Shown piece by piece: positions 6,001 through 9,000 of a stretch of DNA of 47,236 nucleotides. The stretch lies in IMG/VR virus record IMGVR_UViG_2522572021_000009. One strand, given 5' to 3'. This DNA is from a virus (taxonomy: Duplodnaviria; Heunggongvirae; Uroviricota; Caudoviricetes). How positions within the stretch are numbered: the stretch's first letter is position 1; every line of letters begins with the position of its first letter. The position numbers were made by a program.

Positions 6001-9000
6001 ACACATCCATCTTCAGCAGGTTGCGCCCGTAGCGCAGTATGGCTTCCGGGTCTTCCACCAGTTCCGTGGAGGTCTGCCAGCCGTTCTGCGGGTCGGTGTA
6101 ATTCACCTCCACCGCCGTGTGGCGGTCCTTCAGGGCGCTGAAGCTGTAGCGAAACCCCACGCCGTTATCATCCACCACCACATCGCTGTTGGTGTACGGC
6201 CACACCACATCCGACGGGCGGTCCTGAACGAACGTCAGCGTCTGGCCGTTCCATACCGGCATACAGCGCATCGCCGAGCAGAAATCACTGAGCACATCCC
6301 ATGCCTTACGCTGTTGTGACAGGTACGCATTAAAGGTCATCCGCGGCTCGGTCCCCCCGAAACCATCCGGCACCGTCTGGTCGCAGTACTGCGCAATGGC
6401 ATACAGCGCCCATTTGTCCACGTCTGCCGCCCCCAGACGTTTTCCCATGCCGTAGCGCGGGTGAGTCAGCATGTCCCACAGGCACCAGGCCGGATTGTTG
6501 CTGTATGCCGGTTTCAGACTGCCGTCCCAGATACCGCTGTACGTGCGTTTTTCCGGGTCATAGTTTGACGGTACCTGAATGATGCGACCGCGGATATGGT
6601 AGTTCACCGTCATCTGCTGACCGCCAAACTGCTCCGCATCCACCTGCAGCCCCACAATCGCCGTGTTCGGGTAGCACTGTTTCACATCGATGATTTCGGT
6701 GTATGACGACCAGAGCGTCTTATTCTGCAGCTGGTCCGTGGTGCTGTCCGCCGTCTCCCTGACCATCCGGATGTTAAAGGGGCGGGGAGGCAGATTATCC
6801 AGAATCACCGAAGCGAGGAACTGTGAGGTGGTCTTGCCGTTAATGGTGACATCCTTTTCCGTCACCCAGTTACCGTTACGCTGCAGCTGAATCAGCAGGC
6901 GGACGGATGCCGGGTTACGGTCACTCTGTGAGGTGGTCTGCACCAGTGACTGCACCCCGAAGGTGACCCGCAGGCGGTCAATGTTCGCGGACGTAATGGT
7001 GCGCGTCACCGGCTTTGCCTTCGTCACTTCCACGCCCAGTGCGGTTTCAGAACCGGATGACTCAAAACCTTCCGGCGGTGTCTGCTCCTGCTCCCCGGCG
7101 CGCCAGACCGCTGTCACACCATGTATCACAGGATTACCGTCCGTGTCCGTCAGCGGGGTTTTGTTCACCAGAATACTCTGCAGCCCCTTCACCGGACCTT
7201 CCACCGGTCCCTCACCGATGGCATCAATCACGCTCATCATCTGCGTGGACTTAAGATTGTCCTTTGCCTCAACCGGCGTGTGCGCCTTGCCGCCACCTTT
7301 ACCCACTCTGTCCCCCTCTCCTGTCTGATGTCTGAATCTGTTTATGCCCCAAAAACGACAGGCACCCCGGAGGGTGCCTGTGTCATGACGGAATAAAATT
7401 TCTGAATTTCTTCACATTTTCTGTACGCCCCCGTGGCAGATATCATTCCCGGGCGTTACAGTTTTTTCGGGCCAATAAAAACAAAACTCCCTGTGGTTAA
7501 TCTTCATTTTCTGTTCCCGCAGCCTCCATACACTGCGGGATTTTTTTATTTTCATCCCCGCCCGATAACCACCACTTTCCCGTCTCCGCCTTCATCACGG
7601 GTGCTGATGTCCTGGGATATCCGTCGTGAACCAACCAGCATTTCACCGTAAGGCACCGGCATCGGGTTCCCCTGAGCAATCATGTTGTCCAGTGAGGAAA
7701 AGTACGTGTTCTGTCTGCCGTTATCCGTTGCGCGGTAATCCGGTGTTTTTGCCTTCGGGGCAAGCATCTGAGCCACACCACCCAGTATCATGCTGGCCCC
7801 CAGTGAAAACAGCATCGTGGTGGCAGAAAAACCACCGGCTGCCAGGGCTGAACCCCATAACGCCATTGATGCCCCGGCAGTGAAGAAAGAGCCCACGATG
7901 GCTGCCGCCCCCAGCACAATCTGCAGTCCGCCTTTCCCTGCACCGGCCAGTCGCGGCACAATGTGGATGACCGTTCCCTCACCCAGCTGTTCGTGAAGAC
8001 GGGCGTACACCGCCTCCGGTGCCGTGTCATAACCGGCAATACGTATCTGGTACCAGCCTTCGTTCATCTGACGGCGAAAGCCCGGCACCTGTAACGACAG
8101 CGCCCGGATGGCTTCCGCTGCCGTGTTCACATACAGGCTGAGGCGGCGGCCAAATCGTTGTAAATCCCCGTGAAGGCAGATGCGTGCCAGTGGCGGTGAC
8201 GCCAGACAGAATGCGTTCGTCGTTGCCATTTTTCGGAATACCTCTCCCGTTTACTCAGTTGTTCAGGCAGATGGTGAAGCAGCTCACCGTTGCCACAGTA
8301 AATGGCGGCATGGTTCGGTACCGAAGCACCAAAGCAGCACAGCAGAATATCGCCCGCCTGTGCAGAGGACAGGGGCACCCGGTAAAAGCCCGTTCCCTCC
8401 ATATTGTCCAGGTACAGGTTCTGGCCGTTGCGCCACCAGTCATCCTCGCGATGAAAATCCGGCATTTCAGTCCCCGCCAGATGGTACGCATCCCGGAACA
8501 GGGTGTAACAGTCCGTCACCCCGTGTTCAAAGCGCCGTCCGGTCAGGTGCGGAACGCAGCGGAATTTGTGAATGTCACCCCGGCTGACCAGCCACCAGGG
8601 CAGTGCGCTTTTTATCTGCAGCCGCCGGTCAGCCTCGCTCAGCCAGGGCAGACCACCGGGATGACTGTGAACCAGCGCCACAATCTCCCCCGACATCTCT
8701 GCCCGCAGCCAGTCTTCCGGTGCGATACGAAAATACGCCTCCGGCTCTGCGGAAATATTCACACAAGGGATATACCACTCCCCCTCCGGCGTGCTTATCA
8801 CGAAGCCGCACGACTCCGCAGGCGCACACCGCCGGGCATGCGCCAGAATCGCTGATTCAGTCTGTGTCATAAACCGGGATTTACTGCGAAAGTTTATTAA
8901 TGGAAAGGAAGCCGCCAAAGTTGCCGACATTCCTGCGCAGTTCACACCCGCGCATGCATTTACTGCATCTGTCCTTCCGGATATCCGTGGTGGGGTTGTC

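Follow-up and report, generated by a model that had tools for sequence, protein, structure and literature searches.

The stretch of DNA analyzed here, referred to throughout as the window, is the 47,236-nucleotide (nt) IMG/VR record IMGVR_UViG_2522572021_000009, a lambdoid prophage, and our subject is the gap between its tail genes I and J. Both genes lie on the minus strand: I, encoding the tail assembly protein, at 7552-8229 (Pfam Lambda_tail_I, E = 2e-16), and J, encoding the tip attachment/host specificity protein from a GTG start codon, at 3779-7306 (six of its seven Pfam matches are to gpJ or phage-tail domains). The gap between them measures 245 bp (7307-7551). A first-pass annotation had noticed two opposing hairpins in this gap and had suggested that they bracket one insert encoding a small RNA (sRNA); the gene coordinates and both hairpins were borne out. 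However, the two hairpins are parts of two different things. Our analysis makes it highly probable that the gap holds an sRNA gene of the PasB/EcOnc22 family, read from the plus strand, beside an ancestral hairpin that belongs to the sense (minus) strand of the tail operon.

The I-proximal hairpin has the form of an intrinsic terminator for the sRNA (7515-7547, plus strand). In the centroid fold, UCCCGCAG (7515-7522) pairs with CUGCGGGA (7533-7540) across a 10-nt loop, and the stem is followed by a U7 tail (7541-7547) that ends 5 nt before the I stop codon. A hairpin with a run of nine T residues had originally been described at this end of the gap; the hairpin (7515-7540) is there, but the run is really T7-A-T4 (7541-7551). 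All 27 non-window alleles have the identical 8-bp stem but vary in the loop. Upstream on the same strand, a -10-like hexamer, TATCAT (7441-7446), lies 24 nt after the TCACA of a conserved box, TCTGA-atttct-TCACA (7401-7416), and the hexamer is followed at the expected start site by a conserved CTGCGTTA (GCGTTA in the window, 7453-7458). With its 5' end deduced from the hexamer, the predicted sRNA of the window (the "W" allele) spans 7453-7547 on the plus strand, as supported by a covariance model and by synteny. The window position equivalent to the reported 5' end of PasB is ~7467, which would give an RNA of ~81 nt, and the predicted length is accordingly ~81-95 nt (7453/7467-7547), antisense to the tail operon.

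Membership in a family was assessed using I-J gaps from 120 IMG/VR loci gathered via a conserved 25-mer and from 80 more gathered via the I protein; including reference loci, this set came to 206 copies with 82 distinct sequences. From it, a covariance model (R1) was made of 27 distinct alleles, PasB-type alleles included and all window-type alleles left out. The model recovered the window copy, matching 7453-7547 (+) over its full length (model positions 1-96 of 96) with 86.3 bits (E = 3e-14), while the next best match in the 47-kb window reached 22 bits. A scan of the gap against Rfam 15 returned no family for the window sRNA.

Those relatives include an experimentally validated sRNA. PasB (pathogenicity-associated sRNA B) comes from prophage PP6 of enteropathogenic Escherichia coli (EPEC) O127:H6 E2348/69 (Pearl Mizrahi et al. 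2021, PMC8550237; Zhu, Shabalina, and Storz 2026, bioRxiv 10.64898/2026.05.13.724894). It was found by Hfq RIL-seq (ligation and sequencing of interacting RNAs), confirmed by Northern blot and found to be Hfq-dependent, being strongly reduced in a Δhfq strain (PMC8550237). Its reported coordinates (NC_011601, 1466343->1466261, minus strand, 83 nt) place it between E2348C_1436 and E2348C_1437 (PMC8550237). We found these two genes to be I and J of PP6, both on the plus strand; since PasB is on the minus strand, it runs antisense to the tail operon and has its 3' end just past the I stop codon. The EPEC and window gaps align throughout, with both hairpins keeping their stems and differing in their loops, and the Northern probe for PasB begins with 12 nt (AATCCCGCAGTG) that have an exact minus-strand match at the I-proximal hairpin of the window. 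Over the predicted RNA, the two alleles are 76.8% identical, and their longest shared exact word is 17 nt. The RIL-seq study looked for Rho-independent terminators with a U-tract of at least 4; the window allele has its 8-bp stem and U7.

A second set of experimental data bears on the same slot. EcOnc22 (prophage Sp15), EcOnc23 (Sp14), and EcOnc24 (Sp11) were reported as orphan peaks in Hfq CRAC (cDNA analysis after cross-linking) from enterohemorrhagic E. coli (EHEC) O157:H7 Sakai (Tree et al. 2014, PMC4104026), with a Northern band of ~85 nt that was destabilized in Δhfq (PMC4104026). In the current Sakai record, each of the three loci maps to an I-J gap and runs antisense to the tail genes, and Sakai holds exactly three copies of the EcOnc22-type allele. 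The probe used for EcOnc22/23/24, GGGAGAGAACGATGAAGATTAAC...GGAGTTA, is sense sequence directly adjoining the I-proximal terminator of the Sakai allele, and what it detects is therefore the body of the antisense RNA, which is the RNA known as PasB in EPEC. Thus, PasB and EcOnc22-24 appear to be the same family. This connection is absent from the sources concerned: no homologue in EHEC is given for PasB in its Table S6 entry (PMC8550237), the 2026 preprint on the Pas sRNAs does not mention EcOnc (bioRxiv 10.64898/2026.05.13.724894), and in the later literature we found EcOnc22-24 in one review table, with targets listed as unknown. The initial guess of an sRNA locus was therefore correct, inasmuch as the syntenic gaps of EPEC and EHEC Sakai encode validated Hfq-dependent sRNAs. 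One part of that guess did not hold: only the I-proximal terminator is used, by a plus-strand RNA that is antisense to the operon. Synteny, homology, family membership, terminators, and the pattern of conservation are all observed at the window locus itself.

In folding, the window RNA has no stable structure apart from its terminator, and it contains no AUG. Its U7 tail, a U-rich stretch at 7506-7514 and an A-rich, ARN-like stretch (AAUAAAAACAAAAC) are compatible with Hfq binding, and in sequence it looks like a typical Hfq sRNA. We propose that the sRNA gene (unit 1, ~7398-7551) would be a self-contained insertion antisense to the tail operon, in which plus-strand transcription would start ~7 nt past the hexamer TATCAT and end at the hairpin and U7 just beyond the I stop codon. 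By analogy with the validated relatives, the RNA would be made in the lysogen, be stabilized by Hfq and pair in trans with host and prophage mRNAs. The conserved motifs ACUCC and GUUAAUCUUCAU alternate with allele-specific segments, which probably alter the target range. PasB takes part in 37 RIL-seq interactions, mostly with mRNAs elsewhere in the genome, and is almost always the second RNA in the chimeras (PMC8550237), a position that is the signature of a trans-acting sRNA; moreover, it was detected in uninduced cultures. On this analogy, we think it likely that the window allele has a trans-acting, Hfq-dependent function.

It is also conceivable that the RNA acts mainly in cis, pairing with the I-J part of the late tail mRNA on induction, or being titrated by that mRNA, with trans targets secondary. 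RNase III cleavage or altered stability would then set the I-to-J ratio or delay tail assembly, an effect compatible with an Hfq-dependent sRNA that also has targets elsewhere. The gene is indeed antisense to the operon in every allele and host examined, its RNA is perfectly complementary to the intercistronic mRNA, and its position right after the I stop codon is fixed even when the J leader or the cargo changes. However, the I coding sequence and the J ribosome-binding site both lie outside the RNA, whose 5' end is ~145 nt from the J start, and the antisense orientation may simply avoid disruption of the operon. The presence of PasB in uninduced cultures and the location of its partners also argue against a mainly cis role, which we consider improbable, and we favor action in trans.

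Conservation along the gap was assessed across 18 representatives less than 92% identical to one another. The conserved islands are the box, TCTGA-N6-TCACATTT (7401-7420), the hexamer (7441-7446), GCGTTA (7453-7458), a U-run (7462-7467), the A-rich segment, ACUCC, GUUAAUCUUC(A/G)U (7496-7507), and the terminator stem, which is invariant, with its U-tail. Variation and recombination affect what lies between the islands as well as the terminator loop: the W body was seen with two loop types, and a Sakai-like body was seen with the EPEC loop. We asked whether the islands might reflect a small protein instead. The first-pass annotation had found no convincing open reading frame (ORF) in the gap, only fragments of 14-17 codons; no ORF is indeed conserved, although mechanical ORFs of 47 amino acids (7555..7412, minus strand, with an ATG that overlaps the TGA stop of I) and 34 amino acids (7446..7342, minus strand) do exist. 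A further candidate is a sense mini-ORF that starts from ATGAAGATTAAC (MKIN...), in whose first ~10 codons several differences between EPEC and Sakai are synonymous. Nevertheless, the EPEC allele lacks a start codon for the 47-amino-acid ORF, and several allele classes have ACG in place of the MKIN start. The MKIN frame shifts between the window and EPEC; lengths vary (22, 31, and 39 amino acids), and the C termini are unrelated. The conserved bases are better explained by the sRNA motifs GUUAAUCUUCAU and ACUCC. Since the ORFs are not conserved between alleles, we rejected a coding reading of the gap, whose probability we regard as negligible, in favor of the sRNA gene.

Several observations weigh against the sRNA reading as we present it. 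The relatives are reported at 83 and ~85 nt, below the 91-98 nt that the -10 hexamer would predict; for this reason, the 5' end is left between ~7453 and ~7467, which would fit either transcription starting close to 7453 or processing to an end at about 7467, immediately past the U-run. No covariation was detected in the sRNA terminator stem across the 27 non-window alleles, none being possible because the stem is invariant. A generic sigma-70 promoter scan of 6800-8100 called nothing, having missed the hexamer at 7441-7446 because there is no good -35, and the window's TATCAT is weaker than the TATAAT of most alleles. The placement of the Sakai peaks also has a complication. The coordinates in Table S2 of Tree et al. 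2014 bear no single offset to NC_002695.2: the offset is ~+137-146 at AgvB (AgvB1, 1.94 Mb) and +123-154 at the Sp11 copy (EcOnc24), but ~0 to -20 at PasA/EcOnc51 (2.24 Mb), if the EcOnc51 peak is the PasA homologue. The PasA/EcOnc51 anchor thus disagrees with the other two, and because the anchors are inconsistent, the EcOnc22 peak was placed within the gap by its probe sequence and not by coordinates; any re-use of that table needs re-mapping by sequence. Finally, the expression of the window allele itself, its Hfq dependence, exact 5' end, regulators, and targets are all inferred.

We then considered how the sRNA might be controlled. The box is present in 192 of the 206 gap copies, and the distance from TCACA to the hexamer is exactly 24 nt in nearly all of 67 distinct sequences, even though the bases between them have diverged and contain no consistent -35. 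The hexamer itself is TATAAT in the majority of alleles; AATAAT, CATAAT, and GATAAT also occur. Together, the fixed distance and the lack of a usable -35 point to activator dependence, and the sRNA promoter is probably activator-dependent. Where the J-proximal leader has been exchanged, as in the class of 342-bp gaps described below, the sRNA module has kept its box. CRP binds a pair of half-sites with the consensus TGTGA-N6-TCACA, and the box matches this pair at 9 of 10 positions. In addition, PasB was raised in overnight static lysogeny broth relative to mid-log DMEM, and the CRP-repressed sRNA Spf showed the reverse, which is circumstantial support for CRP control. Other results speak against this assignment. 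Enrichment of CRP-like motifs in the window was not significant (3 matches vs. 1.78 expected). The box center (7408.5) lies 32 nt before the hexamer, at ~-44.5 from the start predicted at 7453, and so is off the canonical CRP site centers of -41.5 and -61.5, and stationary-phase or low-oxygen control fits the expression of PasB equally well. That the box is a CRP site is therefore only a tentative suggestion, and one we are inclined to doubt.

The J-proximal hairpin has a different history. Reading on the minus strand, ACAGGCACCC-tccg-GGGTGCCTGT (7381-7358) is followed by CGTTTTTGGGG, so that a 10-bp stem with seven GC pairs and a 4-nt loop precedes CGTTTTT, with T5 at 7355-7351. The first-pass annotation had described a minus-strand hairpin and T-tract before J, and these are found at 7381-7351, ending 51 nt before the J start. 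In a terminator scan, this was the only strong terminator-like site in 6800-8100, and folding gave -28.5 kcal/mol (z = -5.1 relative to shuffled sequences), with -20.8 kcal/mol for the stem alone. Between the hairpin and J lie the J ribosome-binding site, GGAGAGGGGG (7312-7321), and, adjoining it upstream, two tandem copies of the heptamer TCAGACA (7322-7335), all on the minus strand. In related phages, the heptamer occurs in 2-5 copies. Among close variants, two changes are found in the stem of the hairpin: a single substitution (G>A) and a double one (C>T paired with G>A) that is compensatory.

A terminator in the middle of the late tail operon had been thought unexpected, but lambda and distant lambdoid prophages carry an equivalent hairpin and T-run before J. 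In lambda (NC_001416, ~15465-15492), the I-J gap is 60 nt and contains ACCGCC-tgcg-GGCGGT followed by TTTTGTCATTT. Lambda thus resembles the window in having a GC-rich sense hairpin and T-rich run just upstream of the J ribosome-binding site, but its stem is unrelated and it has no sRNA module between the I stop and the hairpin. A scan of contigs with the I protein yielded few loci, several of them evidently contaminant, and was the source of more distant relatives. Prophages from Enterobacter, Rahnella, Pantoea, and Pseudocitrobacter have I proteins only 34-45% identical to that of the window, yet a sense hairpin with a T-run of at least 5 stands directly before J in them as well. The stems of these hairpins are unrelated to one another, and the gaps are mostly only 86-90 nt. 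EPEC PP6 also has a hairpin and T-run before J. Because lambda and the distant prophages have this equivalent, the J-proximal hairpin is ancestral: it is an old, structurally conserved feature of the tail module and not part of the insert. The two hairpins therefore do not bracket one insert, and only the I-proximal ~185 bp of the gap is extra relative to lambda.

The sense hairpin could instead mark the end of a second small transcript, made from the minus strand. Its stem and T5 are a strong terminator-like signal, and the flanking block is nearly invariant. However, the generic scan found no sigma-70-like promoter on the minus strand of the gap, the complete EPEC RIL-seq Table S5 contains no sense RNA of the gap, and the orphan Hfq-peak table of Tree et al. 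has only plus-strand peaks at the three Sakai gaps. Moreover, the like hairpins of lambda and the distant prophages occur in gaps of 60-90 nt, too small for a gene, and since the hairpin is present where there is no such room, we explain it as an operon-internal terminator or stabilizer; a minus-strand sRNA is, in our estimate, very unlikely. Whether the hairpin of the operon acts as a terminator is an even question, and an mRNA-stabilizing role is equally possible. Late transcription in lambdoid phages is carried out by a Q-modified, terminator-resistant polymerase, and a hairpin before J therefore need not interfere with lytic growth. In our proposal, this hairpin and the J leader (unit 2, 7351-7381 plus leader) would constitute the ancestral I-J junction, and the hairpin would stop polymerases without Q modification, such as those of stray transcription in the lysogen, while being read through in late, Q-antiterminated transcription.

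The gap behaves as a slot for variable cargo. I and J had been assumed to be tightly spaced as a rule; this is true of the 60 nt of lambda, but all 77 close relatives retrieved via the I protein have gaps of 234-852 bp, which fall into lengths of 234-259 bp (n = 26), 295 bp (n = 1), 338-344 bp (n = 40), and 851-852 bp (n = 10). The I-proximal half falls into at least five allele classes, with more in the larger set of copies. In the 342-bp class (L141 and ~40 other loci, 338-344 bp), an EPEC-type module, box included, adjoins a J leader that is unrelated and brings a sense hairpin of its own, AAAACCCCGGTATC-tgct-GATACCGGGGTTTCTCTTT; the breakpoint lies directly after the TTCAGAA of the box. 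In the 851-852-bp class (L217 and nine other IMG/VR loci), a PasB-like module is separated from J by an antisense gene for Cu,Zn superoxide dismutase, sodC (Pfam Sod_Cu PF00080, E = 4e-32). The box and -10 hexamer are missing upstream of the PasB-like RNA in this class, which might therefore be made differently. Two distant loci, from Pseudocitrobacter faecalis (L129, 2136-2681) and Enterobacter wuhouensis (L131), have a sense ORF of ~180 amino acids in the I-J slot; the ORF has a lipoprotein-like signal (...LLGGLLISAC) and is followed by the conserved hairpin and T-run. Three further loci, assigned to "Streptomyces flavalbus" (L126, NZ_JBHTEB010000006.1), "Parendozoicomonas haliclonae" (L128, 460 bp), and a Clostridiales metagenome-assembled genome (L135), have I proteins 93-100% identical to that of the window. 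L128 and L135 cover only the C-terminal part of I, and L126 also has a PasB-type gap; all three are almost certainly E. coli prophage contamination of the assemblies.

To count the alleles, allele-specific megablast searches were run against 5,426 complete E. coli genomes. The window allele was found in 1,559 copies in 469 genomes, with a median of 3 and up to 8 per genome, the EPEC PasB-type allele in 999 copies in 956 genomes (median 1), and the Sakai-type allele in 1,246 copies in 542 genomes, so that the three together make ~3,800 copies. PasB-type alleles are thus typically single, whereas the window allele is multi-copy, and the most highly so of the three. The longest exact words shared by the window allele with the other two are only 15-17 nt, which is why the three give no megablast cross-matches. 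Among the matches listed, no annotated feature lies under the sRNA copies. The whole window spacer occurs in 147 phage records, mostly Stx1a-, Stx2a-, and Stx2c-converting phages.

These numbers also bear on whether the spacer is merely a decaying, non-functional remnant, with hairpins and T-runs that are leftovers or due to chance. The variable segments are highly diverged, identity is ~75% overall, and the terminator stem lacks covariation, all of which a remnant might show. Against this, conservation is patterned, with the box, the -10 position, the start motif, and the terminator stem invariant across the 18 diverged representatives. The module has also been retained through recombination of its neighbors, 273 of the genomes have a window-allele copy at least 99% identical, the total number of copies is large, and two sister alleles are expressed and Hfq-bound. 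Decay is accordingly a most implausible explanation, and an active sRNA gene is preferred.

The counts also suggest why the family has been seen as smaller than it is. A 2026 survey reported 1,158 PasB matches on 1,107 chromosomes, with duplicates on only 58, from a search of Escherichia with word size 28 (bioRxiv 10.64898/2026.05.13.724894). These counts fit the EPEC-type allele alone, and we infer that window-type and Sakai-type alleles were left out, almost certainly so for the window type given the word size. The sRNA family in the I-J slot is thus broader than reported, and search settings probably explain why PasB has been portrayed as confined to non-EHEC strains and mostly single-copy. 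Treating PasB (2021) and EcOnc22-24 (2014) as one family merges two experimental data sets. Furthermore, the structure of the alleles, in which promoter, terminator, and motifs are fixed and the segments between them vary, is a natural experiment in target diversification by prophage sRNAs, and it yields a testable promoter hypothesis.

A wider hypothesis, which we put forward speculatively and regard as possible rather than likely, is that lambdoid prophages reserve the I-J junction for one family of Hfq sRNAs, mosaic and hypervariable, with at least five alleles, of which PasB and EcOnc22-24 would be two and the window allele a third. These alleles would share one activator-dependent, possibly CRP-controlled promoter and carry different seeds. 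Shiga toxin-producing E. coli with up to 8 copies of several alleles would then couple carbon or stationary-phase status to allele-specific host targets, and the ancestral terminator would be a Q-dependent gate before J. The kind of locus is already known, the family having been found twice experimentally, and basic concepts are unchanged, so that this work is an incremental refinement of known biology. Three points are new: an allele that is diverged, unannotated, and very abundant; the connection of PasB with EcOnc22-24; and the ancestral nature of the second hairpin, which lambda shares.

Elsewhere in the window, Rfam matches at gathering level were obtained for STnc100 (28219-28419, minus strand), sok (32579-32754, minus strand), and DicF (41224-41275, plus strand), which gives this prophage at least three more regulatory RNAs of known kinds. 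Convergent with STnc100 is another candidate sRNA at 28130-28218 (plus strand), in the slot that AgvB, AsxR, or PasA occupies in other prophages. It has a hairpin GCCCGCG...CGCGGGC followed by T7 (~28190-28219) and sub-threshold matches only (OmrA-B, 26 bits; R1, 22 bits), and BLAST detected no similarity between it and EPEC PasA.

Compared with the known members of its own family, the window allele shares with PasB the I-J slot, the antisense orientation, the terminator stem and U-tail, the spacing of box and -10 hexamer, and internal motifs; it differs from PasB in its variable segments, for example CUGUGGUUA vs. UUCACAUUG, and in its hexamer, TATCAT as opposed to TATAAT. EcOnc22-24 likewise agree with it in slot, strand, terminator, and promoter layout, but at 75.5% identity they depart from it in the A-rich segment, in the variable segments, and in the loop of the terminator. 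We also considered whether the RNA of the gap might be AgvB or AsxR and rejected this identity: those genes sit at the moron site of P_R', and searches of the gap with Rfam RF02702/RF02703 were negative both at the gathering threshold and at E <= 10, while the same method recovers AgvB at its own site in Sakai. The two groups have features in common: AgvB/AsxR, like PasB and EcOnc22-24, are short Hfq-binding prophage sRNAs, they too come as families of alleles in which the 3' part is conserved and the 5' segments vary, and they contain A-rich, ARN-like motifs. They differ in that the slot of AgvB/AsxR is the moron site downstream of P_R', convergent with STnc100, and in that no sequence relationship links them to PasB and EcOnc22-24. 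The sponge mechanism is described for AgvB and AsxR, which are anti-sRNAs.

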